Shown one piece after another: positions 2,151-55,450 of a stretch of 64,000 nucleotides of DNA. Within the stretch, counting starts at the first letter, position 1. Each line of letters starts with the position of its first letter. The position numbers and the translations under genes are program-made. Origin of the DNA: a virus; IMG/VR virus record IMGVR_UViG_3300010163_003545, positions 5,287 through 69,286 of that record, one strand, 5' to 3'. The notes under the pieces are model-generated. The model saw only the letters and a program-made list of their open reading frames with translations. It was not told the origin of the DNA and ran no database searches.

Positions 2151-3860
2151 TTAGTTCAACGCCTGATAGCGCTCATGGTCGTATGCCTGCTTCTCAGGAT
2201 TCTTGGAGTTTTCGTCAGGCGACCTACCACCCTTCTTTTCTCCAGCTTTTGGCGCATTTTTAATCTCGGGGGCAGCCCCTCCACCACCGCTTTGCTTATT
2301 CGGACTGGCAGTATAGGCATTGGCCCACGGTTCAAACACATCGCCTGTGCCGTCTTTGTTTTCTTTCTCGCGGCGTTCGCGCTCATCTTTGTAAGATCGC
2401 CCGATGATTTCAAAGGCTGTCTCATAACTGCAATTAAAGGTCTGATGCAAGGTACGAGCCAGTTCCATCTTCACATTCGGCTCCATGTACTCAGAGTCGA
2501 TGATTTCCACTCGTGGCGCATAGGCAATATCTATCCCGCGATCCTGCAAGACCACCCTATACCACTTTTCCAGGATCGGCTCCAGTTGGCGCGATATTTT
2601 ATTGATTGTGCGCATCAATTGCTTTGTGCCGAGGTTTACCGATCCAAGGCTTTGTCCGCCGCCGCTAAGCATAAACTCTACGCCCAGCGTACTCATAATA
2701 CGCCCTCGCAAATAGCTAATCATCTGTATGTTCGTGGTATCACCTTTGGGCTCGACATACGAAATTTTGAGCACACTCGGGGGTGTCGTAACTGCCACAA
2801 TGCTCTGCCCCCAAGCATCCATAAAGTTCTTATGCACGCGTGCCTGTTCTTCGTAGCAATCCTTCTTGTATTCCGGCCCAAGAATTTCTTTAATCATTTG
2901 CTGATGGATGATTGTCTTAGAGCGATTACGCGCCGCCGCCCGGTCAGCAGCCTCGAATTTTTCCAACAATAGCGCCGGTGTCAGCGCACGAAAATAGGGA
3001 GACAGTCCATACTGCCTCCCCTGATTGTTGATGCGCATTACACCAGTATTGCTTAAGTCCAGCTTCGCATATTTTTCTTTAGCAGTGTAAGCTTTCTGCA
3101 CCTCGGGTGCGTAGTTAGCTTTTACTTCGTCGTCCGTCTTCTTAAAGAAAAGAGGCTGTCTCTTCTTGGTTGTCTTATGTGTCTTATTCAATCGGTTCTT
3201 GAGTTCATCAATGTTCATTAGAACATAAGGGTCTCCACCGACCTCATAATCGCTAATTTCAACGACACCCAACGGATAACTGTCTACCACATAGTCGGAA
3301 CCGGTTAAATCTTCTTGGCTTTTCCCCGCGCCTTCCGTTCTCCGACGTAGATATAGCACATATGTCCCATCCCGGAAGGTGCTCGTGATTGCTTCGCGGA
3401 TAATCCTATCGAGATTTACCTTCTCGTTAAAATCGGCAATCACGGCCTTCGCACGAACCAGCGTCTTCGCGTCGCGTTTTTCATCCATCGCACGCTCATC
3501 AGCCCAAATTAAACGAATGTCTGTATTCACATTGTTTTCAATAGCGTCCTGCGTTGCCCCAAACAAATCGTTCTTATTCACATATTGCCTGTCGATCTCA
3601 ATAATCTCCCGCGTCTTAGATAAATCACTCTGAGGCGCAACGGACAGTTCTTCGATTCGGCTCTGCGTCAAAGAGGCTTGCGTCTCACTCGCAGACAGAT
3701 AGGCGGAATACGCTCGATTAGATGGATCGTAAGTTTCCCCCGCAGTCGCAAGGAGCATATCATACCGAGGTGGCGTATCCTCGGACTTCTTCGCCACTTC
3801 ATTCGGGTAAATAATATGAAATTCTTTCTCTTCCAAGACACCACCTCCTTCACTCGTCAT
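2151..3860 (-). CDS. phage portal protein (putative)
   Basis: 569 aa. Its start overlaps the TerL stop by 11 nt (3850..3860). Size and position between terminase and scaffold fit a portal. No motif-level proof. Confidence 0.5.
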   Translation of the reverse strand: MTSEGGGVLEEKEFHIIYPNEVAKKSEDTPPRYDMLLATAGETYDPSNRAYSAYLSASETQASLTQSRIEELSVAPQSDLSKTREIIEIDRQYVNKNDLFGATQDAIENNVNTDIRLIWADERAMDEKRDAKTLVRAKAVIADFNEKVNLDRIIREAITSTFRDGTYVLYLRRRTEGAGKSQEDLTGSDYVVDSYPLGVVEISDYEVGGDPYVLMNIDELKNRLNKTHKTTKKRQPLFFKKTDDEVKANYAPEVQKAYTAKEKYAKLDLSNTGVMRINNQGRQYGLSPYFRALTPALLLEKFEAADRAAARNRSKTIIHQQMIKEILGPEYKKDCYEEQARVHKNFMDAWGQSIVAVTTPPSVLKISYVEPKGDTTNIQMISYLRGRIMSTLGVEFMLSGGGQSLGSVNLGTKQLMRTINKISRQLEPILEKWYRVVLQDRGIDIAYAPRVEIIDSEYMEPNVKMELARTLHQTFNCSYETAFEIIGRSYKDERERREKENKDGTGDVFEPWANAYTASPNKQSGGGGAAPEIKNAPKAGEKKGGRSPDENSKNPEKQAYDHERYQALN

Positions 3861-5694
3861 AGTTCAAAACCGATACGGTTGAGGCCCTATCTAGCACAAT
3901 TTTCTTTTGTTCTTCCGGCTTCACGGCTTGTCCATGCCTTAACTTTGCCAAATACCAGCAAAGAAGCCCAAAAGAAAATGCACGGTCATCGTGCATCACA
4001 TTTCGCTTTTCTGGCGGGTAGTTATATGTTACGCTGTCTCCATTCACATACTTACACATCGTTGTAATCTCTGTCTTTAACATTTCTATCTGCGTTAGTG
4101 CAATTTGTTCTTCCAAGGTTAGATCATATCGCAATTCCTCTCCGTCCTCATTCACAAGCGCCAGATAGTCCTTACCCTTTTCGTACTCAGCGGGGAAAGA
4201 CACAACGCCTAATTTTATCATATCTTCCATTGCCCGGAAAATATTGTTGCGTTCAGCGCGTGGCTCCACAAGCCTAAAAATCTCAGCTGCATTTGGCCAA
4301 TCATCCAGGCGCTCACGATATCCTTTATGCGTTGGATCAATCAACCCTTTATGCTTCACTCCCTGCGCATCTTGCCAGTCCTGTAGCATGTAGTCAGCAA
4401 CACCGCCGATCATACCACCACCAGCACCAGCATCGCCAATCACTGCCTCGATGTTCTCGTAGTCCAGCTTTCCTAGTTCTGTGCCGTTGTAGCTTAATAG
4501 AAGCTTTTTGAAATCATTCACCTGCTCGGGCATGGTTTTAGGCGTGCGATTCTTCAACTTTGCGTCTGCAAAGCTCACCACGTTGCCTAAGTGCATGCAC
4601 CAGCCCATAATGGGATCGTTATAGAACTCTGCTACGCAAACGACGCTATTATCATTCATGCGAGCGCTATCCCACGCGAGAGCAAAACGCTGTACGCCCG
4701 TTTCATTACGAAGGGTAGGCGGCATAGGCCGTACACACTGCATTAAAGTGCGAGGTGTTACGATCTGCCCCTCATAGCTGCCGCTAGAAAATTTGTTGAA
4801 CAACTCGCGCTGCGCTTTCTCAGGATCTTCCCTCATTTGCTTTTCCACGGCCTCGCGGGTGATCAAACTGCGGTATTTTTCGCCGTCCTTTGTTGCATTT
4901 AGGATTACGTCCACATTAAAATCGCAGACAAAATAATCACTGTTGCCCATCATCATTTCGCGGGTAAAGTTCCGAATCTTTGCGAAGTAACCTGATTCCG
5001 TGTCAGACGCGGAAGAACCATAAATGAGCTGCTTTTGAAAAGCCGGGGGTTCAAGTTCTAGCTTTAACCCAACGCCCATCTTAAAGTCGCTGTCCTGATT
5101 CGCGAAGTTCTCACCTTGAATAAACAACTCATCTGAATACCAGCCGCTCTCATCAAAAAACACCAAATCGGCACGCTTACCGCGAACGTTGTCAGGGTTG
5201 CTATTAAGCGTGTTAATCGTAGAGCCGTTGAATAACTCACAGGTGAAAGAGGCCGGGTCATGGGAAAAGCCGTCACTATTTACGGGGATCACAACTTCTC
5301 CGAGAAAAAATTCCGTACTCCCCGTGAAACTTTCAATTCTATTCTTGGCGATCTTTTCAATCTTCTGAAAAACTTCTTTACTCTGCGCGCCCGTCTTGCC
5401 AAGGAAGTATGTATTGTGACCCGGTAACAATACGCTACGTGTCATCGTATACAGAGCACCCTCTGTCGTTTTGCCCGCATTGCGGCACATCAGCCATGCG
5501 GCATACCTCGCAGTCCACGTCATCGTGAATACGTACCGCTGTAAATCCAGAAGTTCAACCCCCATGAACTCTCGCTGGAAATCCACTGGGTGCCGCAACC
5601 CCCACGCACGTACTTTGTTGTATTTATACCATCCTTCCAGCTTTCTTTCGTTCACCTGCCGGTCAGAAGGTATGCTCATAAAATCAAACGGCAT
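3850..5694 (-). CDS. terL: terminase large subunit
   Basis: 614 aa. Walker A-like CRNAGKTT near the N-terminus and an acidic C-terminal nuclease-like half. Overlaps the upstream gene by 11 nt and the downstream portal by 11 nt. Confidence 0.75.
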   Translation of the reverse strand: MPFDFMSIPSDRQVNERKLEGWYKYNKVRAWGLRHPVDFQREFMGVELLDLQRYVFTMTWTARYAAWLMCRNAGKTTEGALYTMTRSVLLPGHNTYFLGKTGAQSKEVFQKIEKIAKNRIESFTGSTEFFLGEVVIPVNSDGFSHDPASFTCELFNGSTINTLNSNPDNVRGKRADLVFFDESGWYSDELFIQGENFANQDSDFKMGVGLKLELEPPAFQKQLIYGSSASDTESGYFAKIRNFTREMMMGNSDYFVCDFNVDVILNATKDGEKYRSLITREAVEKQMREDPEKAQRELFNKFSSGSYEGQIVTPRTLMQCVRPMPPTLRNETGVQRFALAWDSARMNDNSVVCVAEFYNDPIMGWCMHLGNVVSFADAKLKNRTPKTMPEQVNDFKKLLLSYNGTELGKLDYENIEAVIGDAGAGGGMIGGVADYMLQDWQDAQGVKHKGLIDPTHKGYRERLDDWPNAAEIFRLVEPRAERNNIFRAMEDMIKLGVVSFPAEYEKGKDYLALVNEDGEELRYDLTLEEQIALTQIEMLKTEITTMCKYVNGDSVTYNYPPEKRNVMHDDRAFSFGLLCWYLAKLRHGQAVKPEEQKKIVLDRASTVSVLNYDE

Positions 5695-7051
5695 CGTCGC
5701 TCACCGCCTGCGTTGCCTCGTCGTTCCCCCGCATCTCGTCCAAAATTGCCTGTGCGTCCGGTTCAACAGCCGCTTCTTCATCGCTAAGTTCAATAAAAAC
5801 CTCGTTATTCTTAAAAGGCGTCTTGTGATACTGCCCTGGATGCTTGAGTTCATCAAGTTCCACTTGGGCCTTTCGTAGCTCCTCTTTCAACTCGACGATG
5901 GTTCTGGTCTGAGACTGAATACGTTCCGACTGCTCCGCGACCATCTTCGCATACTCATCGCCGGTAAAATTCAATTCGTCCATTAGCGCCTTGTGACTCA
6001 GCTTACAGATATGCTGATATGCCGCGTCCATCTTCACATCGGCAACGTTCGTTTTCGCCTCCAGAACGCCATTTTTAAGCATTGCGTCTATGGTTCCCGT
6101 GAACGTCTTCGCTGCCTTTGCATTCTTTGCGTCTGCTGCGATCCGGTTTGCCTTCGCAATATTCGTGATAGAACTATTCAGCTTTAACAGAGTGTCCGTA
6201 AGGTTTTTATACACGGTAGGGTCGGGTGCCACAGCACGGAGCATGGCAACCGTTCTCGTCTGAAGAATGGTGACTTGTAGCTGCATTTTTACAATTTCTA
6301 TCACACTGATTAACTTGTGGGGATCGTCTAAAAGAGTCTCATCTGTTAAATATCGAGATAGCATATTAAACAGAGCTTTCCGATCATTGCTCGTATATAC
6401 ATCGTCAGAGAAGGGATCATATCCTAGCATGCGTATGCACGTTACCATATTACGACGATCTTCAAGTTTCCAATTCCCCTCAAGTCTCTCCTGTACCTCT
6501 GCCGAGGAAAGAAATAATTTTCTCTTATCATACAGTTCAAGAAAATTCGTCAATATGCTTTTTCCATGCCCCCATTGAGGATTATTAAGCTGCCGCAAAT
6601 ACTTGCCAAATGAAGCGCTTTCACCACTGGAGACCATCGTTTCATAAAGCATTTCACTAAAGTAATGTCCCGTAACAACGCAAGTCAGGAACATAGCCAG
6701 CTTTTCGTCGCCGTATTCCGCTTTGTAATTGTCCAATAGCTGCTGTGTACAATCAATACAAAGATAAGTGTAACCCTCGTTCCCTTTGAAAGCATCCATC
6801 GCTTGATTGCGATAGAACTTGCTCAATGCGGTCATTGTCATTTTCCCGCAGCATGTGCATTTATATATCTTAGGCAACTTATTTAGATCTTTGTCTACAG
6901 CGATCGTGTATGTTTTTACTGCATGCTTTACCTTATTTTTTCTTCCCGTTTCAACGAACTCAGGATTCTTAGGGGGCCTGCCCCTCTTCTTGGGCGCTTC
7001 TGCACCCGCGTTATTCTCAGGCACAGTCTCACCCCTTTTCACTTGTGCCAA
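5684..7051 (-). CDS. AT-hook/zinc-finger DNA-binding protein, possible terminase small subunit
   Basis: 455 aa. N-terminal KKRGRPPKNP AT-hook-like motif. CTCCGK...CIDCTQ Cys4 pattern. Directly upstream of TerL and overlapping it by 11 nt. Confidence 0.3.
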   Translation of the reverse strand: MAQVKRGETVPENNAGAEAPKKRGRPPKNPEFVETGRKNKVKHAVKTYTIAVDKDLNKLPKIYKCTCCGKMTMTALSKFYRNQAMDAFKGNEGYTYLCIDCTQQLLDNYKAEYGDEKLAMFLTCVVTGHYFSEMLYETMVSSGESASFGKYLRQLNNPQWGHGKSILTNFLELYDKRKLFLSSAEVQERLEGNWKLEDRRNMVTCIRMLGYDPFSDDVYTSNDRKALFNMLSRYLTDETLLDDPHKLISVIEIVKMQLQVTILQTRTVAMLRAVAPDPTVYKNLTDTLLKLNSSITNIAKANRIAADAKNAKAAKTFTGTIDAMLKNGVLEAKTNVADVKMDAAYQHICKLSHKALMDELNFTGDEYAKMVAEQSERIQSQTRTIVELKEELRKAQVELDELKHPGQYHKTPFKNNEVFIELSDEEAAVEPDAQAILDEMRGNDEATQAVSDDAV

Positions 7052-7852
7052 TTACTCTTGAAACAACTCCGCAAACATCTTGCTGGTTTCACTGCGAACA
7101 TCTTCGTCTAACGCGATACAACCAAACCTGGGATTTCCCCGAAATGCCCGACACATCTTTACCAGCGGGTTGTTCGCGTTTTTACAAATCAACGACTGTC
7201 GGTAATCTCCTGCGAAGAAAATCCTAGCATTTTGTCCAACACGAGTACCGATCAGTCGAATCTGACTTTCTGTTAAGTCCTCTGCCTCATCTACAACGAT
7301 GAGCGTATCATTGTAGGTTGTCCCCTTTAGGTAATACGGAATCTGCATATCCAGTACCCCACGGCTGATTAGCGACTCCATTTCAAATTTTCCGCCTGCA
7401 AGCTGCTGCTCCAGTGGTCGAAAGAAATTGCCCACTTTATCCGCGAAATCTCCTGGTAAATGCCCAACGGATGCACCCTCGCCTTTTGCTTCGCGAATCC
7501 CTAGGACACTGCTTTGGTTTCCCCTCTCGTTTACGTGATATAGTGCCATCAGCATTGAGAGATACGTTTTTCCGCTCCCATATGTGCCCAATACAGCTAC
7601 CACCGGTATTTCCTTGTTATTGAGCAAGTCAAGCGCACAGCGCTGCAAACTGTTCTTTGCTTTAACATATGAGGACGGTGGCAGACGAAGCCCGACAAAC
7701 TTTTCACCGTCGAAACGCATTTCTGTTGTCTCCCCGTCATCCGTGTTGGTCAAAATCAAATACTCGTTCGTAACGAAATCGAGATGGGCAGTCCCCATAT
7801 AAGCATTGATCTCTTCAGTCGTTCCAGTGAACGATTGATACCCCGTATACAC
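7052..7852 (-). CDS. phoH: PhoH-like ATPase
   Basis: Walker A GTYGSGKTYL, Walker B IVVDEAEDLT, and the overall PhoH layout (…GDYRQ…). Confidence 0.7.
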   Translation of the reverse strand: MYTGYQSFTGTTEEINAYMGTAHLDFVTNEYLILTNTDDGETTEMRFDGEKFVGLRLPPSSYVKAKNSLQRCALDLLNNKEIPVVAVLGTYGSGKTYLSMLMALYHVNERGNQSSVLGIREAKGEGASVGHLPGDFADKVGNFFRPLEQQLAGGKFEMESLISRGVLDMQIPYYLKGTTYNDTLIVVDEAEDLTESQIRLIGTRVGQNARIFFAGDYRQSLICKNANNPLVKMCRAFRGNPRFGCIALDEDVRSETSKMFAELFQE

Positions 7853-8112
7853 GTTTGCTTCGCTACTGATAGCACATCACCGTCTTTCTTTTTGGTTCCT
7901 ATTCTGGAGCCATGTGCCTGATTTGAACAGGTATTGGTTGAGTACAAATCGACTGTCCTACCGTTGAACGAACATGGCATGGAGCCGGGCATCCTATTTG
8001 AACGGATGTTATACTCTTTACGAAAGAGTTGTCTTACCTCAGACCATCCCGGCGCAATAAAAATGCGACTACTCTCACTCGTCGCCTTCTTCTCTGTATC
8101 TAACCGACAAAC

Positions 8113-8613
8113 TTATCTAGCGAGCCACTCATGGATATGATTCGCGATCCGAATTTGCCCTTTGGGAGTAACCAAAGGTGTATGCGAGAAACGGTCGTAT
8201 CCATACCGTGAGTCGTAATAGCAGCTCTCTTGAACCACAAAATATCCTTCGCTAATATAGCGCTGATATGGCATATTCCATTCACCGCTATACCTTCCAC
8301 TCATGAGAACTCCCTGCGTCCTCAGCAAGGCAAATAGCTGATTTTGCCCGATCTTAAATCCTTTTTGATTTAGGATCCGTGCCATGTCAGCAATGTGAAT
8401 GTTCTCCTGGGTTTTCTCAACAGCCTCAGCAAACGCAACCTTTGGCGCTTGCTCTTCAATTTTATTCTCTGCGGCTATCCTCGCGGCACGTTCTTTCTTC
8501 AAATCAGTCGCAAGACGAATAAGGGTATCCGGGTCAGCTAATACCTTTTCGACCATTTCAGGTGTCATATATGCTCCGCGCTTCCGGACGGAAGGAAGTA
8601 CTTCATGAGTCAC
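8113..8613 (-). CDS. antirepressor C-terminal (KilAC) domain fragment
   Basis: KilAC-like motifs: ARILNQKGFKIGQNQLFALLRTQGVL … RYISEGYF. Same reading frame as the Bro-N ORF, separated from it only by the TAA at 8701..8703. Confidence 0.6.
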   Translation of the reverse strand: MTHEVLPSVRKRGAYMTPEMVEKVLADPDTLIRLATDLKKERAARIAAENKIEEQAPKVAFAEAVEKTQENIHIADMARILNQKGFKIGQNQLFALLRTQGVLMSGRYSGEWNMPYQRYISEGYFVVQESCYYDSRYGYDRFSHTPLVTPKGQIRIANHIHEWLAR

Positions 8614-9078: not shown

Positions 9079-10323
9079 TCATTCCATTACCACCGGGAAA
9101 TAAACTTCGACTCCGCGTTCATTGCAAATCATGATTGTCTGACTTGCCTTGCCACTCAATCGTTTTTCAATAGTATGGTCATCTCCCGCCCCGCAAAGAG
9201 CGCCATTCTGAATCACCTTTACGCCATTTACCTCCACCAAGGCCGAAAAATGTTTGTGGCCCGTACAAACCGCATAGGGAATATCCCCTAGCATAAACGC
9301 CAGCTTGGAAATCCCCGCCTGCGTAAGTTCATCGTGATCTCCGTGGGCGAAATAATAGAGCTGGCCACAAATGCCCAGTTCCGCCACAGTATTATCCACG
9401 ACCATCCTCGGCTTAAAATTACGAACGTGCCTTAGCGTTGATTTGACATACCATCCAATCAAGTCGTCCAAGCGGTCATCCTTGATGGCTTTCTCCTTAT
9501 TAGACTCAATCCGACTATGGTTCCCAGCAACACTGACAAAGTTCACTTCTTCAAATTCTCGGCACATCTTGTACAGAAAATCTGTGGCCATTTCTGATGC
9601 CGTCATTATTTGCTCAATCACATTTTCACGATTGGCTACCAGAATAGAAGGACGTATAGCGCCGGATATCATGTCACCCATCATGGCGACATTACAGATT
9701 TTGATGTGATTTTGCTTAGCAATAGTACCGACATAGGCGGCTAGGTACTGCAACCGCTCACGCGCGATTGCCGTATTGTAACGACCAAACTCATTGTCAA
9801 ACTCCAAGCCAATGTGCCAATCAGAGAGTAATACTAATATCTCACGTTGATATGGTTCGTGGGAACTCGCTGACCACGCAATATCAGGTTTAATCTCTTG
9901 ATATCGCTCCTTCCCTGCAAGCGCCCACTTAGTCTCAAGCTCGTCTAGCCTCTGGTCAAGTCGAGCCTCATCTCTCACATATTTACCGAGCTGAGTACGC
10001 TCGTCTCGCAAACGCTGACGCTCTTTCAGCAGTTCATGCCGTTCTGCCTTTAGAGCATCCAAAAGGCCGACTGTCTCACTCTCCCCAGAGTCCGCACCCA
10101 TTTTCGAGAAAACATCCTCATAGAACGCTTTTGCGGCTGTGTATGGCCTCCGATACATCCCCTCATTGCGATAGTCATCCTCGTCTCGAAACTCGCGGTT
10201 CATCACTTCCGCAATCTCGTCCCAACTTGCATCCAAAAGGCCCGATGTTTTAGCCTCCCCTATGCGCCAAAGAAACTGACGCTCATTCTCGCCTTCTTTT
10301 TTATGAAATTCCATTGCAGTCAA
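9079..10323 (-). CDS. calcineurin-like metallophosphoesterase with N-terminal coiled coil
   Basis: Phosphoesterase motifs in order: LLSDWHIG (D-x-H), MMGDMISG (GD…), AGNHS (GNH[DE]), GHKHF (GH-x-H). An N-terminal segment of about 150 aa is charged and heptad-like. Confidence 0.7.
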   Translation of the reverse strand: MTAMEFHKKEGENERQFLWRIGEAKTSGLLDASWDEIAEVMNREFRDEDDYRNEGMYRRPYTAAKAFYEDVFSKMGADSGESETVGLLDALKAERHELLKERQRLRDERTQLGKYVRDEARLDQRLDELETKWALAGKERYQEIKPDIAWSASSHEPYQREILVLLSDWHIGLEFDNEFGRYNTAIARERLQYLAAYVGTIAKQNHIKICNVAMMGDMISGAIRPSILVANRENVIEQIMTASEMATDFLYKMCREFEEVNFVSVAGNHSRIESNKEKAIKDDRLDDLIGWYVKSTLRHVRNFKPRMVVDNTVAELGICGQLYYFAHGDHDELTQAGISKLAFMLGDIPYAVCTGHKHFSALVEVNGVKVIQNGALCGAGDDHTIEKRLSGKASQTIMICNERGVEVYFPVVME

Positions 10324-10325
10324 AA

Positions 10326-10529
10326 TCAGTCACCAACCTCGTCGGGAGCGGGAGGAAGTGCCATGCCGTGCTTGAGTATGATCGAGATATTCTCAACTCC
10401 GTCCCAATCTCGCAGGACATCCATCAGGTTGTAGACATTGACATCCTCTTTCAATTCTTCCGTGATCGTCATGTCTTTCAAGTTAATCGTCGCGTGCTCG
10501 AACGTGGTAGAAACATTCTTCTTCGCCAT
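10326..10529 (-). CDS. hypothetical protein
   Basis: 67-aa ORF packed 2 nt after the upstream gene. No recognisable motif. Confidence 0.35.
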   Translation of the reverse strand: MAKKNVSTTFEHATINLKDMTITEELKEDVNVYNLMDVLRDWDGVENISIILKHGMALPPAPDEVGD

Positions 10530-10549: not shown

Positions 10550-10735
10550 TCAATGTGTCTGCTTCTTATAGCTCGCTGGATTCTGCCGATAGCCCTCTAA
10601 AAATCTCAGCACAGCCGTTTCTTCGCTTACGTAATACCTATGACGGCAACTTTTCTGCCGGTTCACCCGTGTTACCACCGCCACAGGAATATGCTCACGA
10701 ATCCACGCGGCCTCTTCCTTGTTGACAACAACCAT
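10550..10735 (-). CDS. hypothetical small basic protein
   Basis: 61-aa ORF in operon context. Confidence 0.3.
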   Translation of the reverse strand: MVVVNKEEAAWIREHIPVAVVTRVNRQKSCRHRYYVSEETAVLRFLEGYRQNPASYKKQTH

Positions 10736-10800
10736 TGAATCATTCCTTTCAAATAGCGTGATATAGCGAGCATTTCTCCCTCTATATCATCTTTCAAAGC

Positions 10801-10850
10801 TAATAAAATAAAAAAAGAGCCGGAATCCCTTATAAATAAAGGGTTTCCGG
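10801..10850 (-). terminator. rho-independent terminator (hairpin plus T-tract on the minus strand)
   Basis: GCCGGAATCCCTT-ATAAAT-AAGGGTTTCCGGC hairpin. On the minus strand it is followed by TTTTTTTATTTTATT. Lies just downstream of the 10871..11680 gene. Confidence 0.6.
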
Positions 10851-10870
10851 CATTTCTCTATGTCGCTTTG

Positions 10871-11680
10871 TTAATTTACTTCATGCCGACATGCATTGCA
10901 AAATTTATGTTTCATGGGCCGATGGTTGCGGTTGGACACCCAAAAAGGTTCTCCGCACATTTCGCAAAATTCTTTGTGATCTCCGACACCATCAACACGC
11001 CTGGGAGAGCACAACTTACAGAATTTCTGTTTGTTTGAGTTTTTATAATACGCCGCTCCGCATTTCGGGCATATGCCTATACGCTTGCTACCCTTGTACC
11101 TTTCGTAATATAGCCCCGCGCAATCAAAGCCGTTCAACGTAACCTCAAAGGCGACCTCCCCGCCCTCTTTCAGACCCTCCATAAAGTGAAGCCACAGATT
11201 TCCACGAGGCATAAATTCTATTAACCCCTTCTCGTCTAGCCCGTGCATCACACCGTAGAAAATATCTACGGCCCTATCCATGTGTCCTTCTTTTTTGATG
11301 CGCTTAAAAGACTTCATGTTGCAAGGATAGCTCATATAACTCTTATACTGGCTATCAGGCTTACGACATGCATATGCGGCTCGATCAATTTTCTTCCTTA
11401 CGAGCAGCGTAACCATGGCCTTACGCTCATTTTCGTCTTCACTAAGTCTCTCGATTTCTTCAATTTCATCCTTGTATACCGTAACCGAATCCACCTCAAT
11501 AAGGTGATTATCTTTTTTGGCTGCGTATTTCAATGTTTCCTCAATCACCTTGTAATCCGCCCTTGGATGAAACGCAGGATAATACTTTTCACAAAATGAA
11601 GTAATAAATTCCCTGCGCTCCTTCACTCCCATCTTCTTTACATCCCGCAAATAAACAACGAGCAACTGCAATTCAAACAT
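10871..11680 (-). CDS. zinc-ribbon protein (multiple CxxC pairs at the C-terminus)
   Basis: C-terminus: GICPKCGAAYY…FCKLCSP…FCEMCGEP…FCNACRHE. The maximal ORF extends to 11761 and would then overlap the upstream gene by 59 nt. I chose the ATG at 11680, which has an AGGGTGG-like RBS. Confidence 0.4.
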   Translation of the reverse strand: MFELQLLVVYLRDVKKMGVKERREFITSFCEKYYPAFHPRADYKVIEETLKYAAKKDNHLIEVDSVTVYKDEIEEIERLSEDENERKAMVTLLVRKKIDRAAYACRKPDSQYKSYMSYPCNMKSFKRIKKEGHMDRAVDIFYGVMHGLDEKGLIEFMPRGNLWLHFMEGLKEGGEVAFEVTLNGFDCAGLYYERYKGSKRIGICPKCGAAYYKNSNKQKFCKLCSPRRVDGVGDHKEFCEMCGEPFWVSNRNHRPMKHKFCNACRHEVN

Positions 11681-11702
11681 ACACTTGCCACCCTGAAACC
11701 CG

Positions 11703-14540
11703 TTACAATATATTTTCCTCGCCAATGTCCTCTGCTGATACCTTTCCGTCATACTCCACATCTAACTCATCCACCTCCACCATTTTATAATCCTTCCCGA
11801 GGTATGTCGTATCTCCCGTTGTATCGTCGCACTCCTCAACCCAAACAAACGGCTCTCCTCTGTCGATCGTCTTTCTCGCCGCATTTTCGCAAAGGATTTT
11901 TCCGCACATAGACCAGAGAGCATCTTTGCAAACACTCGGATGTTGAACATAACTGTAATACACCAACGCATCCGCCACAACTTTCATAGACGGACAAATA
12001 AACTTTAGCTGCTGTTTTAGACTCGACATAAAACGGCACTTTTTCTCCCTTAGCGTCTCGCTATTGTCTGTCGCTAAAATCGAGTTTCCCATGTCCTTTT
12101 TATGCCGTTCAAAACATTTCACAATGTCGTTGTAATAATCTTCCCATTCATGCCCCTCTGACATATACTCAAACGGATCAAAATGCTCTGAAGTCCTTAC
12201 CTTAGCAGCTACTTTGAAGTTGATCTTTTCCAAGTACCGACAGAGCAAGTTCATAGGACTATCACTCTCGATAAGAGGAGAATAGTCATGATATTCCCAA
12301 AGCCATGCTTCCTGTTCTGGGGTACGGTTCTCCATCTCTTTGAGCTGCGTCACTGTTACCCCGAATTTAGAAAGGCACATGCTATTTTTCCGCGCATAAT
12401 AGTCGCGGTGTTTCTGCCTGTCTTCGCGATAGCGATACTTGAAAAAGTATGGACGACGATTTAAGAGGCAGGCGTTCAATAGTTCTTTCCGCTTGCGGAC
12501 TTCAAGAGTGTCACCATCCAAGTATTGCTGATGATCAATCCATGCCTTGGGAATGCACTTCACTGCTTGGCCTATTTTTGTCCGGTCGATCTGTTTTGAC
12601 TGTGCCACACAGCACTGCTTAAGTCGCGATTCTACGAGAGCGACCTGCTCACTGTCTTTGCCGTAGCGTTCTTCCAGCAAAGGCAGCAACGCGTAACCCG
12701 TCGTCCCCCTATTGGTGATGGCCCCAATCTTCGACCCAAACCCAAACTTGTCCGAAGCAAACAAGTCCTGCTGCGTAAAGAGCTTTTTCACTGGCTTTGG
12801 CGCGTCATACACCACAGGTAACTCGTCCTTGTAAACACAACGAATCATAGCCGCATTGTCAGTGGTAGCAATGATATCACCGTCCCAGTCACTACCAGAA
12901 TACCGCACGCAATCGTTGCCAAACCAGTTGACAATAAATCCGCTCGGGCAATGCTTGAACCATTTTTCTGTGTCATCGTTCTTTATCAGCTTTGCCAGAA
13001 CATGCTCGCTCCTATAAGTCATGGGAGACCGCATAGAGTCAACCAACGCAACGCCTCGCTCGTTCCAGTAGTTACAGTAATATTCCCCTTCATTCAGCAG
13101 CCCCGTTACAGGAAGCCCGCAGACATGCTGCATATAGGCGAACGGATCGCTTACAAGCATTTGAAAATTGCCATGCACCAACACTTCTCCCATGCGGCCA
13201 TTCTCTATCCGCCCATGGATTAGTTCCCGAATCTTTCCACGGATGTACGCATCATTAGCACAGTTGCGATTTACAAACAGCGCCTTAATCCACGCCTTAT
13301 CGGGAGCGTTCAATATCCGAAGAACACTTTGCTTATCCACATCTTTTCCCAGCAGGAACAACAGCATATATGTCGGATCTTTATAGCTTACACGCTCAAT
13401 CCAGTCTACAAAGTCTGCACACAGCTCTTCCACGTCCTCTTGCTTTAGATCAAGTGTCTGAATGAACTGATAGTTTAGACGTAACACGTCTTTGGGTTCT
13501 TTGGGCGAACAACCTGTAATTCCCCAATACAGCTTGTTCTTGTGTGTGTTCCCAACATACTGCTCTATACTTTCAAAACTATCCCATAGCTTAAACTGGG
13601 ATTCACTAATAATCATATCTATCTCACGCAGATCTGCCTTGATAGGCTGTCCTTCTGCATCAGTATATATTGTATCGATCAAGTAATTCCCACCATTCAT
13701 CTCCTCGCAAAAAGCATGGAAATCAAAGGTGCAGACCATCCCCTTCAAGAAGCTTTGTCTGACAATCCACTGGCCGGGGATATAATCCAACTCAAGCTCA
13801 GCAGCCCACTTGGCTGACTGTTCAGGCGATATGAGTCCCATCCCATCAGTACGATTCATGGGTACAGTTACTTCTCGCACATCTATTTCATCGTCCAATT
13901 CCCACGCAGTTTCCGTCGCGAAGTTCGCAAGGAACGTTGAAGTGTTCTCAAAGTCCTTGACTACGGCAAGTCTCGGCTCAGATACCTGCTTCGTCGCGCT
14001 GGTATACAGCCCATAATAGGCGTTAAACTTACTCGGTGCCAGTTTTTTGCTAATGTCTCGTCCGTTGTTAAGCCTTCGCTCCAACTCATCAACGATATCT
14101 GCCGCGCAAAAAACGACCGTGCTTATACGCGCTTGCCCAGCGGAACAACTCAGACGTACATATTTCTTATCGTTTATATAAAAGCCGTTCTCAAACATAT
14201 AATCGTAGTGAGATATGGCATCCATCTTTACGGTCACATAATCAGCCACAAACATTGTACGATTGATGCGCCGCTGAATTTCTTCTATCCGAGCCACATA
14301 TTCTGCCTGTACCCTATAGGGCGGCTTTTTGCGCCCAACCAGCCGTTGCCGCAGAATCTGACGCTCTTGGATCAACTTCTCCAGCTTTTTGTGGCATACT
14401 GTTCTTCCTCGTATGTCACGAATAGATCGTAGCACCTGACTATCACCAAGTGCTACGATCTCACCAAGATCTTTGGACTCTTCAAAAGTCGTTTTTATGT
14501 TATACCCCTGTGCTCGTAAACGTCCCGAGTCGAACTTCAT
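11703..14540 (-). CDS. putative YonO-like single-subunit two-barrel RNA polymerase (eukaryotic RdRP-like)
   Basis: 945 aa. Carries the motif YSGSDWDGDII, i.e. D-b-DGD, which is the catalytic signature of double-psi-beta-barrel RNAPs and the QDE-1/YonO family. Lies upstream, on the same strand, of the late/structural operon, as yonO does in SPbeta. Confidence 0.45.
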   Translation of the reverse strand: MKFDSGRLRAQGYNIKTTFEESKDLGEIVALGDSQVLRSIRDIRGRTVCHKKLEKLIQERQILRQRLVGRKKPPYRVQAEYVARIEEIQRRINRTMFVADYVTVKMDAISHYDYMFENGFYINDKKYVRLSCSAGQARISTVVFCAADIVDELERRLNNGRDISKKLAPSKFNAYYGLYTSATKQVSEPRLAVVKDFENTSTFLANFATETAWELDDEIDVREVTVPMNRTDGMGLISPEQSAKWAAELELDYIPGQWIVRQSFLKGMVCTFDFHAFCEEMNGGNYLIDTIYTDAEGQPIKADLREIDMIISESQFKLWDSFESIEQYVGNTHKNKLYWGITGCSPKEPKDVLRLNYQFIQTLDLKQEDVEELCADFVDWIERVSYKDPTYMLLFLLGKDVDKQSVLRILNAPDKAWIKALFVNRNCANDAYIRGKIRELIHGRIENGRMGEVLVHGNFQMLVSDPFAYMQHVCGLPVTGLLNEGEYYCNYWNERGVALVDSMRSPMTYRSEHVLAKLIKNDDTEKWFKHCPSGFIVNWFGNDCVRYSGSDWDGDIIATTDNAAMIRCVYKDELPVVYDAPKPVKKLFTQQDLFASDKFGFGSKIGAITNRGTTGYALLPLLEERYGKDSEQVALVESRLKQCCVAQSKQIDRTKIGQAVKCIPKAWIDHQQYLDGDTLEVRKRKELLNACLLNRRPYFFKYRYREDRQKHRDYYARKNSMCLSKFGVTVTQLKEMENRTPEQEAWLWEYHDYSPLIESDSPMNLLCRYLEKINFKVAAKVRTSEHFDPFEYMSEGHEWEDYYNDIVKCFERHKKDMGNSILATDNSETLREKKCRFMSSLKQQLKFICPSMKVVADALVYYSYVQHPSVCKDALWSMCGKILCENAARKTIDRGEPFVWVEECDDTTGDTTYLGKDYKMVEVDELDVEYDGKVSAEDIGEENIL

Positions 14541-18736: not shown

Positions 18737-19873
18737 CTACCTCACTGCTATTCTGCCAAACGAGTCTGCAACCGTGGTAGAGTTGGCGGCATTGGGGCGT
18801 ATCTCGCTCAGAGTCCCAGTTCTTCGTGGAGCAAGGCATTTTCTGGCCTTGCCGGACGAGGCGCTCCCGAATGGGAGGATGTTGGCTCGTAGGAGGATAT
18901 CGGATGGGAAGGGGATAACGTTACTGGTTTTCTTCATCCAGTTGTTATCGCTCACCCAATGGCTACCACCTTCAGCACTCACCTGGTAGGCGCTACTTTC
19001 AGCATTCTCCCGGTGATCGTTGCTTTCAGTCATGTCCCTTGCTTCAACATGGCTAGTGTTCACACCATCATAGTCCACCAGCCCCAGCTCAACCAGCTCT
19101 TCATCCCCAACCACAGGTGCAGCAGCGGCTTCGCAAGCATCCACCTTCATATCATCATCCAGGCCAATGTAGCGAATGGTTTCCGCTATATCAGAGTGGT
19201 TCAGCAGGACACGGATCAAATCAAGGTTCTGAGTGGCCTTGAACAACCTGTACCCAAAAGTCTTGCGAAGACTGTGAGTCCCGATGTTTTTCTGGATACC
19301 AACAGCCTTGGCAGCAGCCTTGATCACACAGCACATCTGGTCATTGCTCACATAGTCCTCTCCAGTGATCTGAGACCTGAAGATGAACTCGCCAGGGATG
19401 GGCGTGATGCCGGTCATCTTTAGGTACTGGCGGACAGCAGCTCTCGCGGTAACGTTGCAGTAGAGGTTGAAGATCTTGCGGGTCTTCTCCTCTCTGATAA
19501 AGGCGACATTCTCTTCAAGGAAGTCCCCCTTCGCGTCAAGAATATCTCCCCACTTCAGCTTGGCAAGGTCACCACCACGCCGACCAAGGGAAATCCCGAG
19601 CACGAAGTAGAGATAGTTGCGGGGACGAAGCGCGATACGACCGTGAGTCAGCAGGTAACGCTGGATCGCGAGAATTTCGTCTTCCTGCTTAATCGGGTAC
19701 ACTTTGGTCGCTTTACGAGCAACGGGTCGCACTCCCTGCTTTCGCAAGTCACGATTTTTCTCATAATTTTCGCGCTGGTACTTGCGGCGTTCTTCGCGGT
19801 AAGCTTCCTTCATCGGTCGTGTCCTCCTCTTGGTGAACGTGACCCGGCGTTCTGGGTCGTTTCTTTTTGACAA
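18737..19873 (-). CDS. tyrosine site-specific recombinase (compact FimB/Xer-like catalytic core plus ~130-aa low-complexity C-terminal extension)
   Basis: Box I GRRGGDLAKLKWGDI, box II HSLRKTFG, LLNHS…TIRYIG with the catalytic Tyr. The N-terminal arm-binding region is short. The tail after the Tyr is unusually long. Confidence 0.7.
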   Translation of the reverse strand: MSKRNDPERRVTFTKRRTRPMKEAYREERRKYQRENYEKNRDLRKQGVRPVARKATKVYPIKQEDEILAIQRYLLTHGRIALRPRNYLYFVLGISLGRRGGDLAKLKWGDILDAKGDFLEENVAFIREEKTRKIFNLYCNVTARAAVRQYLKMTGITPIPGEFIFRSQITGEDYVSNDQMCCVIKAAAKAVGIQKNIGTHSLRKTFGYRLFKATQNLDLIRVLLNHSDIAETIRYIGLDDDMKVDACEAAAAPVVGDEELVELGLVDYDGVNTSHVEARDMTESNDHRENAESSAYQVSAEGGSHWVSDNNWMKKTSNVIPFPSDILLRANILPFGSASSGKARKCLAPRRTGTLSEIRPNAANSTTVADSFGRIAVR

Positions 19874-38227: not shown

Positions 38228-38315
38228 TCGAATGGGCATCATCTTCGCGTCAGCATCTTTCTTAGCGGAGGGGCGAAAATCTAATGCGTCTCCCCAAGAA
38301 TGCGAACATATGTTC

Positions 38316-38344
38316 TTGACATGGAAAAGCTCATGATGTACAAT
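38316..38344 (+). promoter_or_regulatory. near-consensus sigma70 promoter TTGACA-N17-TACAAT
   Basis: Exact 17-nt spacer. Lies 67 nt upstream of the ParB-like gene start. Confidence 0.6.
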
Positions 38345-38410
38345 CTCTTTACCGCTCTCGTTTATTCTCTTGCAGGTTTCTTACTTATCCCGCAGAAGGA
38401 GGTCTTTTTT

Positions 38411-39817
38411 ATGTCTCAGATGGAGGTTGTTTATCGTGATCCGAGGGAACTTGCTCCTCACCCTCGCAATGGTGAGTTCTTCAGTGATATCGCCCCTGAT
38501 GATTGGCCCGACTTCATAGAGTCTATTCGTAACCGAGGCATCATGAATCCTCTGCTCATCACCTCACAGGACGTGGTTGTCTCCGGGCACCAACGTCTGC
38601 GTGCCGCTTTGGAGCTTGCTCTGGGTGTTGTCCCATGTATTGTTCTGGAGAACAGCGACAATGAGAATGCGCCTCGGGTTTTGCTTGCCCTGATTGAAAC
38701 CAACATCCGTCAGCGTGGCGGATGTGGAGGAACCTCAGCCAAACAGCAGTTGGCAATGGCGTCAACCATCGCAGAATGTATTGATCGCATCCGCTGGGAA
38801 ACTTGGATGGAGTGGAAGATCAATCGTTGCGAACCCAAGGATGAACCTGCGCTAACCAAGGTTTACGCTGAAAACAAAGCTTCTCCGTTGCCCATTGGGA
38901 GAATCCGTTCCGATCTGCGTATCTTTGCGGACGAAGTGAAGGCTCTGGCCGAGGAACAGAAAAGACGAGAGGAGGAGCGAAGGAGGATGGTTGAGGAGGA
39001 TAAGATTGACAATAATTTCACAGAATCGGTGTGCACCGATATTGTGAAAAGTTTAACAGTATCAGAGATCGAGCTAGTCAAGCTCACTGCTAATAAGATG
39101 GGCGTAAGCCCAAGTTGGGTTGAAAAGCTCCGTTCCCTCTCCAACCTCTGCCCCGAACTCCTTGACCGTGTTGACGAAGGCCAAATCTCCGCCGATGCCG
39201 CTGCACGCCTCCTCACCAAACTCTCCCCCGCTGATCAGGAAACTTTCCTCGCCCATCTTCCTGGCGATCTCACCCAAAAGATTACCCGCAAGCAGACAGA
39301 AGCCATCATCACTCAGATGCGCGAGGAATCCAAAGCGATGGTGGATGCTGCCAACTCCAAGGCAGAGCAGAGTGAACAGGCTCGCCGTCAGACGGAAACA
39401 ACCCTTGCTTCCGAGCGTATCCGTCTCTCTGCTCTGCAAAATGAAATCGCCTCGCTGAAGGATGAACTTGCCCATTCACAAGCCAACACCACTTCGGCAA
39501 TCTCCCCCACACTCAACAAGGAACTTCAGGCACTGCAAGGTAAGCTTGAAGCCAAATCCCTTGAGTGTGAAAAAGCCCAGCAGAAGGTTCGCGCTCTCCA
39601 GCATGCACTCGAAGCCGGTTCTGAGCCTACTGTTAGCCCACATGCGGCAATGGATAATGAAGCGGATCTTTTCATGAAGTATGCTGAGCAGATGGAGGGG
39701 CTTGCAAGCACCTTCGCAAGCCGAAAGGTTCTGACCAAATCTATCAAGGCCGCCGTGGAGCGGGCACTGCCATTAGTCGCTTCCCTACAAAACCTAATCC
39801 ACGTTTATACGGACTAG
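38411..39817 (+). CDS. ParB/Srx-like nuclease-domain protein with long C-terminal coiled coil
   Basis: N-terminal ParB-like motif (…PRNGEFF…, VVSGHQRLRAA). C-terminal heptad and low-complexity repeats. RBS AGAAGGAGG. Confidence 0.55.
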   Translation: MSQMEVVYRDPRELAPHPRNGEFFSDIAPDDWPDFIESIRNRGIMNPLLITSQDVVVSGHQRLRAALELALGVVPCIVLENSDNENAPRVLLALIETNIRQRGGCGGTSAKQQLAMASTIAECIDRIRWETWMEWKINRCEPKDEPALTKVYAENKASPLPIGRIRSDLRIFADEVKALAEEQKRREEERRRMVEEDKIDNNFTESVCTDIVKSLTVSEIELVKLTANKMGVSPSWVEKLRSLSNLCPELLDRVDEGQISADAAARLLTKLSPADQETFLAHLPGDLTQKITRKQTEAIITQMREESKAMVDAANSKAEQSEQARRQTETTLASERIRLSALQNEIASLKDELAHSQANTTSAISPTLNKELQALQGKLEAKSLECEKAQQKVRALQHALEAGSEPTVSPHAAMDNEADLFMKYAEQMEGLASTFASRKVLTKSIKAAVERALPLVASLQNLIHVYTD

Positions 39818-41390: not shown

Positions 41391-41466
41391 GGACGCATAG
41401 CACAATGGTTAATGCAGGTGCCTCATAAGCACACGATTCTGGGTTCAACTCCCTGTGCGTCCACCA
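41391..41466 (+). tRNA. tRNA-Met (anticodon CAT; elongator-type, or tRNA-Ile2 if modified)
   Basis: Folded by hand. 7-bp acceptor stem GGACGCA/TGCGTCC. D-arm contains GG. Anticodon loop CTCATAA. T-loop TTCAACT. Discriminator A followed by an encoded CCA. Confidence 0.7.
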
Positions 41467-55166: not shown

Positions 55167-55439
55167 ATGATCGGCCAGCCTAAAAATTCAATTTCTATCC
55201 CCTATTTACCACGCTATCAACCAATTCCTCCATCAAGTCAAACACCACAGCAGCTTCAATCTGGTTATTGCCAACGTATGGGAGTCCCGCCGTTCGCGCC
55301 GCCCTCTGGTGTGTGCTATCGCTGCCATCACTCCATATATTCCAGTAACGATGGAGAAGATGGAGGATATTCTCAACTCTACGCTATGTCAGCCCATATT
55401 ACCGAATGTCCCCATTGCCACCATAGTTTTTGCGAATAG
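55167..55439 (+). CDS. small Cys/His zinc-binding protein
   Basis: CYRCHHS…CPHCHHSFC pattern. Confidence 0.35.
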   Translation: MIGQPKNSISIPYLPRYQPIPPSSQTPQQLQSGYCQRMGVPPFAPPSGVCYRCHHSIYSSNDGEDGGYSQLYAMSAHITECPHCHHSFCE

Positions 55440-55450
55440 GAGGTTCTCAC

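Follow-up and report, generated by a model that had tools for sequence, protein, structure and literature searches.

The YonO family comprises single-chain, DNA-dependent RNA polymerases built on two double-psi beta-barrels, and is distantly related to the beta/beta' core of the cellular enzymes and to the QDE-1/RDR polymerases. YonO of SPbeta is a processive and strictly DNA-dependent RNA polymerase that shows no detectable clamp, flap or trigger-loop homology to the multisubunit polymerases, is catalytically dead as the 3D>3N mutant of its Asp triad, and is needed for 37 SPbeta late genes which are transcribed from a single start site ahead of yonK (Forrest et al., 2017, PMC5467207). Knowledge of the family dates from 2003-2017, and the literature of 2010-2021 records firmicute, cyanobacterial and jumbo-phage members, among them those of Clostridium phage c-st, Bacillus phage 0305phi8-36, other firmicutes and cyanobacteria. 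Here we describe a further member encoded in a 64,000-nucleotide (nt) stretch of viral DNA, positions 5,287 to 69,286 of IMG/VR record IMGVR_UViG_3300010163_003545 (the window), together with the product of the adjoining gene, a winged-helix and zinc-ribbon protein (the partner) that may, on a tentative reading, serve the polymerase in initiation. Family membership, catalytic residues, fold and synteny of the polymerase, the terminator behind its module, and the conservation of the partner with its ribbon link to YonO were established here by computation.

The window locus shares with SPbeta homology over YonO residues 115-794, the Asp triad and the eight core residues of two-barrel polymerases, as well as the same-strand gene order yonO, yonK, yonJ ... 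yonF (terminase), yonE (portal). A stem-loop follows the polymerase module in both, annotated as such in SPbeta and recognizable as an intrinsic terminator in the window. The window polymerase is longer (945 amino acids (aa) against 839 aa), and the C-terminal zinc ribbon that YonO carries in cis is found instead on the separate 296-aa winged-helix protein. SPbeta also has an HU gene after its polymerase gene where the window has none, and the gap to yonK is about 1.7 kb in SPbeta compared with about 340 nt here. A further difference is the GC content of the window genome, about 47-50%.

Homology to YonO and the catalytic core

The polymerase gene (Table 1) is an intact open reading frame (ORF) whose translation includes ...RYSGSDWDGDIIATTD.... 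The original prediction, made from the sequence alone, had read its D-W-D-G-D motif as the mark of a YonO-like or RNA-dependent RNA polymerase (RdRP)-like single-subunit enzyme, and both the ORF and the position of the motif are borne out. D551-W-D553-G-D555 is the sole D.DGD or D.D.D in the protein. By itself the motif is weak evidence, being expected 0.02 times in a protein of this composition (7.5% Asp, 5.4% Gly) and present in 1.8% of 20,000 shuffles of the 945-aa sequence, the same order as the chance of about 1% first estimated; the case for a polymerase rests on the homology results.

These results, with the core residues, fold and synteny described below, support the assignment to the YonO-type polymerases. 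BLASTP aligns the window polymerase with SPbeta YonO over about 500 aa (E = 9e-33), placing DWDGD column for column on DNDGD, and tblastn finds SPbeta yonO at E = 3e-26. A profile built from a 39-member subfamily alignment, whose sequences are 47-79% identical to the window protein, is aligned by hhalign to YonO 115-794 of 839 with 99.6% probability over 664 columns. Pfam family PF05183 (RdRP, QDE-1/RDR type) is matched at 40.1 bits, above its gathering threshold of 23.8, the match covering aa 107-364 only, which correspond to the barrel-1 part of the Pfam model; PHROG 8308, which has no assigned function, matches the full length of the protein (E = 2e-145). Of 50,697 phage records searched with tblastn, 41 contain a relative. 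The homologue in Bacillus phage BUCT082 is 43% identical over its full length, that of Clostridium phage c-st 30%, and those of Enterocloster phages 32-34%, one of them labelled 'RNA-dependent RNA polymerase'. BUCT082, c-st (CST179/178/177), Enterocloster phage PMBT24 (32%) and PHROG 8308 belong to the window subfamily and have the polymerase-plus-partner pair, c-st differing in that a probable group I intron splits its polymerase gene, and BUCT082 and PMBT24 in having an HU gene after the partner. Among named relatives are also Lachnospiraceae and Bacilli assemblies, and homologues are common across metagenomes. The suggestion that the gene newly extends the family beyond low-GC Bacillus phages was not upheld: c-st is already annotated as having a YonO homologue and the Enterocloster and Thomasclavelia phages as having an 'RdRP', so that the window gene adds a member to the family and not a new range.

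All two-barrel RNA polymerases share eight invariant residues near the catalytic metal, namely one Asp and an Arg/Lys pair on barrel 1 and the motifs R-x-P and D-x-D-x-D on barrel 2, the set in QDE-1 being D709, R738, K743, R962, P964, D1007, D1009 and D1011 (Ruprich-Robert and Thuriaux, 2010). The corresponding residues of the window polymerase, D232, R261, K266, R504, P506, D551, D553 and D555, are invariant in 39 of 39 subfamily sequences, and their spacings of 29, 5, 2 and 47 compare with 29, 5, 2 and 45 in QDE-1. The barrel-1 stretch D232...R261...K266 is aligned by the subfamily profile to the DG..R....KG motif of Arabidopsis RDR2 (E = 0.019). Although the original prediction took DbDGD as the two-barrel signature, only part of this holds. 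The three aspartates lie on the essential triad of YonO and are invariant, while the codon of G554 (12879-12881, minus strand) encodes Gly in just 8 of the 39 sequences, the others having Phe (12), Met (11), Tyr (6) or Leu (2); with the glycine unconserved and the aspartates fixed, the signature of the subfamily is D-x-D-x-D. Likewise, a second barrel with Lys/Arg residues had been suggested about 150-250 aa N-terminal of the motif, and R261 and K266, together with D232, are indeed present, but at a distance of about 290 aa.

Some relatives have interrupted polymerase genes, with two hotspots, one within or immediately 3' of the Asp-triad codons (after aa 553-557) and the other after aa 652/653. 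At the level of individual loci the inserts lie at 5644-6514 in L060 (also in L061 and L062), at 5647-7084 and 7380-7720 in L069, and at 7636-7952 in c-st (L008), while L063 and L068 are interrupted near aa 652/653. HNH endonuclease ORFs lie within the L060 and L069 inserts. Rfam at its curated thresholds calls no intron in any of these genes. The c-st insert fits the Rfam group I intron model along the full length with 25.4 bits (E = 1.5e-4), short of the gathering score, and in L060 nothing appeared. Judged from these sequences, an intron probably accounts for the 'split' YonO homologue of c-st, which would then not be a pseudogene.

Predicted fold of the polymerase

A single-protein sequence search of the Protein Data Bank (PDB) gave no match, and the subfamily profile reached RDR2 only at the marginal level given above, so that a fold search was required. 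The AlphaFold2 model, computed from the 39-sequence alignment, has a mean predicted local distance difference test score of 87.6 and a predicted template modelling (TM) score of 0.82. Searched with Foldseek against 350,542 PDB chains, its top 21 matches are all RDR2 or QDE-1 (E 2.5e-19 to 4e-13, TM about 0.4-0.5, 770-970 columns), RDR2 being the best at E = 2.5e-19 and QDE-1 matching with a TM of about 0.5 over about 940 columns, both at a probability of 1.00. The beta' subunits of cellular RNA polymerase appear only in a marginal tail (E > 0.05), and no YonO structure is among the PDB matches. In BFVD, the best matches are phage proteins named 'RNA-dependent RNA polymerase'. The predicted structure thus has the two-barrel catalytic fold, and the profile comparison with YonO and the structural one with QDE-1 are both positive: RDR2 and QDE-1 are matched along the entire chain, and neither a lack of two-barrel likeness nor a motif lying in another fold was found.

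Relative to QDE-1 and RDR2 (PF05183), the window polymerase shares the two-barrel fold (Foldseek E 1e-13 to 1e-19, TM about 0.45-0.5) and the core D..R....K plus R.P...D.D.D, at an identity of 10-16%. Those enzymes are eukaryotic, act in RNA silencing and use RNA or single-stranded DNA templates, in contrast to the phage late-gene context of the window enzyme. With the multisubunit beta/beta' core it has in common the two barrels and the metal-binding triad (NADFDGD compared with DWDGD), but the structural matches are marginal and the window enzyme is a single chain of about a quarter of the size. In every testable feature of the two-barrel superfamily and of the YonO family the window polymerase agrees with the known members, save for the cis zinc ribbon, which marks the YonO-proper branch and is not among the published criteria.

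Gene order and the boundary of the late operon

The polymerase gene lies on the same strand as the terminase and portal genes and upstream of them, as originally noted and as yonO does in SPbeta, and the likeness extends to the YonK and YonJ-like genes (Table 1). The orthologue of the YonJ-like gene in locus L007 has a YonJ_N match. Beyond the YonJ-like gene, in the 3' direction, the same-strand order is anti-repressor (Ant), tRNA, PhoH, a 455-aa protein, large terminase and portal.

For comparison, 89 related loci were collected in addition to the window from phage records, metagenome contigs and IMG/VR, with polymerases 31-79% identical to that of the window. In the window a hairpin begins 20 nt past the stop codon of the partner gene, with the sequence GCCGGAAACCCTT-TATTTAT-AAGGGATTCCGGC followed by TC and T7, and the intergenic RNA fold has z = -5.0. 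Across eight loci the stem cells are paired in 90.6% of cases, compared with 30-58% when the pairing partners are slid, and compensatory changes occur at four stem pairs. The most enriched 6-mers after the partner gene are AAACCC and GGGTTT, found in 11-12 of 46 lineages where 1.3-1.8 would be expected (p about 5e-8). This covarying terminator divides the polymerase module from the late operon. A simple scan found no sigma-70-like site in the gap that follows (10736..10809). The terminator marks a transcription-unit boundary that corresponds in position to the YonO-dependent start ahead of yonK in SPbeta. The first gene beyond it, a 61-aa ORF (MVVVNKEEAAWIRE...RQKSCRHRYY...), begins 74 nt past the terminator and has no match in Pfam or PHROGs.

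The terminator stem (10819-10851, minus strand) is conserved in both sequence and structure, in relatives as well. A simple intrinsic terminator would not usually show this, and the stem might in addition be an inverted repeat to which a protein binds.

Table 1. Positions of the features of the window (position 1 is its first nucleotide).
Feature	Positions	Strand	Remarks
Polymerase gene	11703..14540	-	945-aa ORF, ATG start; YonO-family two-barrel single-chain RNA polymerase
Barrel 1 (beta-like double-psi beta-barrel), about aa 189-272	13725..13976	-	Model strands 191-271; D232, R261, K266; approximate boundaries
Barrel 2 (beta'-like double-psi beta-barrel), about aa 452-580	12801..13187	-	Model strands 454-578; R504-x-P506, Asp triad; approximate boundaries
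D-W-D-G-D, catalytic metal-binding triad, aa 551-555	12876..12890	-	Aligned with YonO DNDGD
Partner gene	10871..11761	-	296 aa; winged-helix domain(s) and two C-terminal zinc ribbons; overlaps polymerase gene by 59 nt
Partner zinc ribbons	10889..11071	-	C231/C234/C248/C251 and C266/C269/C288/C291
Intrinsic terminator	10810..10851	-	13-position stem, one A·A mismatch (12 pairs), 7-nt loop, T7 run
Gap between terminator and first late gene	10736..10809	-	Expected late-promoter site, analogous to YonO-dependent start upstream of yonK
TTTGAAAG box	10798..10791	-	Candidate; in gap
Hairpin in gap	10789..10759	-	
61-aa ORF	10550..10735	-	First gene after terminator; homologues at same position in 29 loci
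YonK-family gene	10326..10529	-	Pfam PF09642, E = 2.2e-9, above cut-off
YonJ-like metallophosphoesterase/exonuclease gene	9079..10323	-	PHROG 284 exonuclease, E = 5.8e-56; weak Metallophos_2 match
tRNA	7908-7978	-	Inside late operon, between anti-repressor and PhoH genes
Large terminase	3850..5694	-	PHROG 2, PHROG 9
Portal	2151..3860	-	PHROG 2739
Tyrosine recombinase	18737-19873	-	
ParB-like gene	38300..39817		
tRNA	41391-41463	+	
Tyrosine recombinase	62726-64000	+	Tn916-type integrase DNA-binding domain; runs off window end

A winged-helix and zinc-ribbon partner

A profile search places a homologue of the partner right after the polymerase gene in 89 of the 90 loci (window counted), the lone exception being SPbeta. 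The two genes lie -176 to +14 nt apart, in most loci -1, -4 or -10, most pairs overlapping by 1-20 nt; short overlaps of this sort are typical of translational coupling, and the two genes are probably coupled. The start codon of the window partner is uncertain, one source placing it at M28 (11680). Partners in these loci are mostly 240-350 aa long, with one of 444 aa, and an exhaustive profile search returned 1,268 cluster representatives of the family, nearly all of 230-310 aa. The protein has a winged-helix fold whose matches include Crp/Fnr, MarR, LexA and replication initiators. Of the ligands of the first zinc ribbon, C231 is nearly invariant and C234, C248 and C251 are invariant.

The distribution of the ribbon is complementary to that of the partner. 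The window polymerase has no zinc ribbon of its own, the ribbon being on the separate partner, while the partner-less YonO-type enzymes of SPbeta, Psychrobacillus phage Perkons and Clostridium phage D-1873 have a C-terminal ribbon with the pattern C-x2-C-G-x...[SN]-x-x-K-Y-C-x2-C, and in all three an HU gene takes the partner's place after the polymerase. A profile of 41 positions made from the partner ribbons, run over a set of 1,867 sequences made up of 1,862 decoy ORFs and five test proteins, has YonO 792-826 as its top match (E = 2.7e-7) and also finds residues 839-869 of the D-1873 polymerase (E = 4e-6), the match to Perkons being weak (E = 0.08). The partner profile is likewise aligned by hhalign to YonO 791-824 (E = 3.3e-6), and the ribbon match begins (791) about where the alignment of the polymerase body stops (794). 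The ribbon of the YonO-type enzymes was missed with the full-length partner profile and came to light with the ribbon-only profile and hhalign. In c-st the partner gene was named 'YonO-homolog (C-ter only)' as early as the 2005 annotation.

This pattern of ribbon fusion or fission and the near-constant adjacency lead us to propose that the partner works with the polymerase. From what the sequences offer, the partner is a candidate initiation or specificity factor, an assignment that we make tentatively, and a contact between the two proteins would be expected. By extension, most phage YonO-type polymerases could, again with some reserve, be two-component enzymes consisting of a two-barrel chain and a winged-helix/zinc-ribbon initiation factor, of which SPbeta YonO would retain a fused ribbon remnant. 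If true, this would be the simplest known polymerase-plus-specificity-factor system in the lineage of cellular RNA polymerase and would explain how YonO recognizes its promoter, which the 2017 work had left open; the partner is in any case a testable lead on initiation by minimal relatives of cellular RNA polymerase. Our literature search returned no description of a partner or a promoter for YonO-type enzymes, an absence that is not proof that none exists. The winged-helix/zinc-ribbon initiation factors TFE of archaea and TFIIE-alpha of eukaryotes provide an analogy for the partner only, with no homology claimed: no TFE-specific signal was found in its sequence or fold, the top matches being generic winged-helix proteins.

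A second ribbon ORF, possibly a paralogue, lies just after the partner at 7694-8257 in locus L015 and at 7702-8508 in L019 (ribbon profile E = 5e-7 and 6e-7).

Search for a late promoter

In divergent loci a box like TTATGA(A/T)AGG or TTTGAAAG, with a hairpin after it, recurs 10-25 nt past the T-run of the terminator, and a similar box, TCATTTATGAGGGT at position 12046 of the SPbeta locus (L001), lies between the published SPbeta primer-extension primers. A weight matrix of the box holds about 11 bits and ranks the SPbeta site between the primers in the top 10 of 38,800 positions. The box falls short of a statistically established motif: in an unbiased 6-mer test TGAAAG (p = 1.3e-4) fails Bonferroni correction, and the published SPbeta start site (genome position 2225998) could not be placed relative to it. 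Part of the box signal moreover consists of ribosome-binding sites, and across the window TTTGAAAGR is not enriched (three matches, 2.3 expected). The hand-anchored box was rejected as an established promoter motif on account of the Bonferroni failure, the ribosome-binding sites and the circularity of the regular-expression scan, and is kept as a candidate. Given the lack of corrected enrichment, the share of ribosome-binding sites and the unplaced SPbeta start, we name the gap of about 75 nt as the place to look, and no motif; lying after a well-defined terminator, it is a narrow region for a promoter search.

Further elements are seen near the corresponding positions of other loci. In the mapped P_YonO region of SPbeta (L001, 12038-12113) a 16-nt inverted repeat, GATAATAGTCATTTAT ... 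ATAAATGGCTATTATC, flanks the TCATTTATGAGGGT box, and a second copy, TCATTTATGAAGGT, lies 157 nt upstream (11889-11902). The Rfam small-RNA motifs drum, DUF3800-XI, DUF3800-VIII and RAGATH-18 occur downstream of the polymerase module (L060 10461-10614, L075 9634-9699, L008 11929-11989), one of them overlapping the start of a yonK-like ORF. They may have a link with the unannotated non-coding RNA that has been described ahead of yonK in SPbeta (Forrest et al., 2017, PMC5467207).

Proposed mechanism and alternative explanations

We propose that host RNA polymerase would transcribe the early/middle operon, which ends in the polymerase gene and its overlapping, probably translationally coupled partner gene, and would halt at the terminator. 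The phage polymerase would then initiate in the gap downstream and read the same-strand late operon, comprising the small ORF, YonK, the YonJ-like nuclease, Ant, the tRNA, PhoH, terminase, portal and head genes, with catalysis by D551, D553 and D555 on barrel 2 and D232, R261 and K266 on barrel 1. That the ORF is an active YonO-family member which uses these residues and transcribes the late operon we consider likely as a whole, its DNA-templated activity and late-gene role being what we infer from family and synteny. As a further and more tentative step, the partner might bind the polymerase by its ribbon and DNA by its winged helices, conferring promoter specificity or helping to open the DNA.

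Several points weigh against this scheme. Experimental activity in the YonO-like group is known for SPbeta YonO only, which is 24% identical to the window polymerase, and the best structural matches carry the names of RNA-dependent enzymes. The 90 loci amount to about 46 lineages and were gathered by their similarity to the window subfamily. The role proposed for the partner is drawn from gene adjacency and a ribbon likeness of about 35 residues, winged-helix domains are ubiquitous, and in Thomasclavelia phage TR-TP1 a ribbon-less polymerase has a 209-aa neighbour that matches the N-terminal half of the partner only.

It could be that the polymerase acts alone, as is supposed for YonO, and that the winged-helix/zinc-ribbon protein is an operon-mate that independently regulates host RNA polymerase or replication, for instance as a repressor or an activator. 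The range of its winged-helix matches, from Crp/Fnr, MarR and LexA to replication initiators, and the ribbon-less partner of TR-TP1 would fit such a role, and YonO elongates in assays that contain no partner. The published YonO assays, however, began from pre-assembled elongation complexes, which puts initiation outside their reach. Against an independent regulator stand also its adjacency to the polymerase gene, usually with overlap, across the sequence range of the collected loci, and the complementary pattern in which three of three partner-less enzymes have the partner-type ribbon in cis; we regard it as rather unlikely.

A second alternative concerns the template, as the window enzyme might be an RNA-dependent RNA polymerase that copies phage or host RNA instead of transcribing DNA. 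The name of the Pfam family, the identity of the nearest solved structures (RDR2 and QDE-1) and the labels of the relatives in GenBank and BFVD all point this way, but the 'RNA-dependent' names of the relatives are carried over from the Pfam label, and complexes of QDE-1 with DNA templates are among the PDB entry titles. YonO, the sole characterized phage member, strongly prefers DNA templates and transcribes late genes; the window belongs to an element with a DNA genome and its own DNA replication genes, and its polymerase gene occupies the exact place of yonO relative to the late operon. An RNA-copying enzyme is therefore improbable. The reading as a DNA-dependent YonO-type transcription enzyme is also the best one for hundreds of relatives labelled hypothetical or 'RNA-dependent RNA polymerase', so that the family assignment is mainly an annotation correction by which these proteins are read as transcription enzymes of SPbeta-like temperate phages.

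Finally, that D.DGD arose by chance in an unrelated large phage protein, or survives in a degenerate and inactive relic, is already refuted, and of negligible probability in spite of a chance occurrence in about 2% of shuffles and a glycine that varies among relatives, by homology and fold likeness to two-barrel polymerases over the full length, by eight catalytic-core residues invariant in 39 diverged sequences and by an intact ORF, the probable homing-endonuclease introns within the Asp-triad codons of relatives likewise suggesting a strongly conserved site.

Other features of the window

Elsewhere the window encodes a DnaB-like helicase, a DNA ligase, a PD-(D/E)XK nuclease, N6/N4 methyltransferases, a 596-aa C5-methyltransferase, a split DnaE, a RecD2-like helicase and two tyrosine recombinases. 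Of the SPbeta-like features first listed, the C5-methyltransferase, DnaE and the DnaB-like helicase are thus present, whereas the primase is not confirmed by Pfam. The GC content is 45-50% over most of the length. Taken with the SPbeta gene order, this set of replication and recombination genes identifies the window as part of an SPbeta-like temperate phage or prophage. Megablast with 20 kb of the window gave no match among phage genomes, the exact polymerase protein is absent from the assembly index, and among species genomes the sole match was to a short contig from a Muribaculaceae assembly.

DnaE, the alpha subunit of DNA polymerase III, is encoded in two ORFs, 55430..57934 and 58673..60199 (plus strand; region 55430-60199), and an HNH_3/NUMOD4 homing-endonuclease ORF (58101..58688) lies between the halves, which suggests that the split is due to an intron or other mobile insertion.

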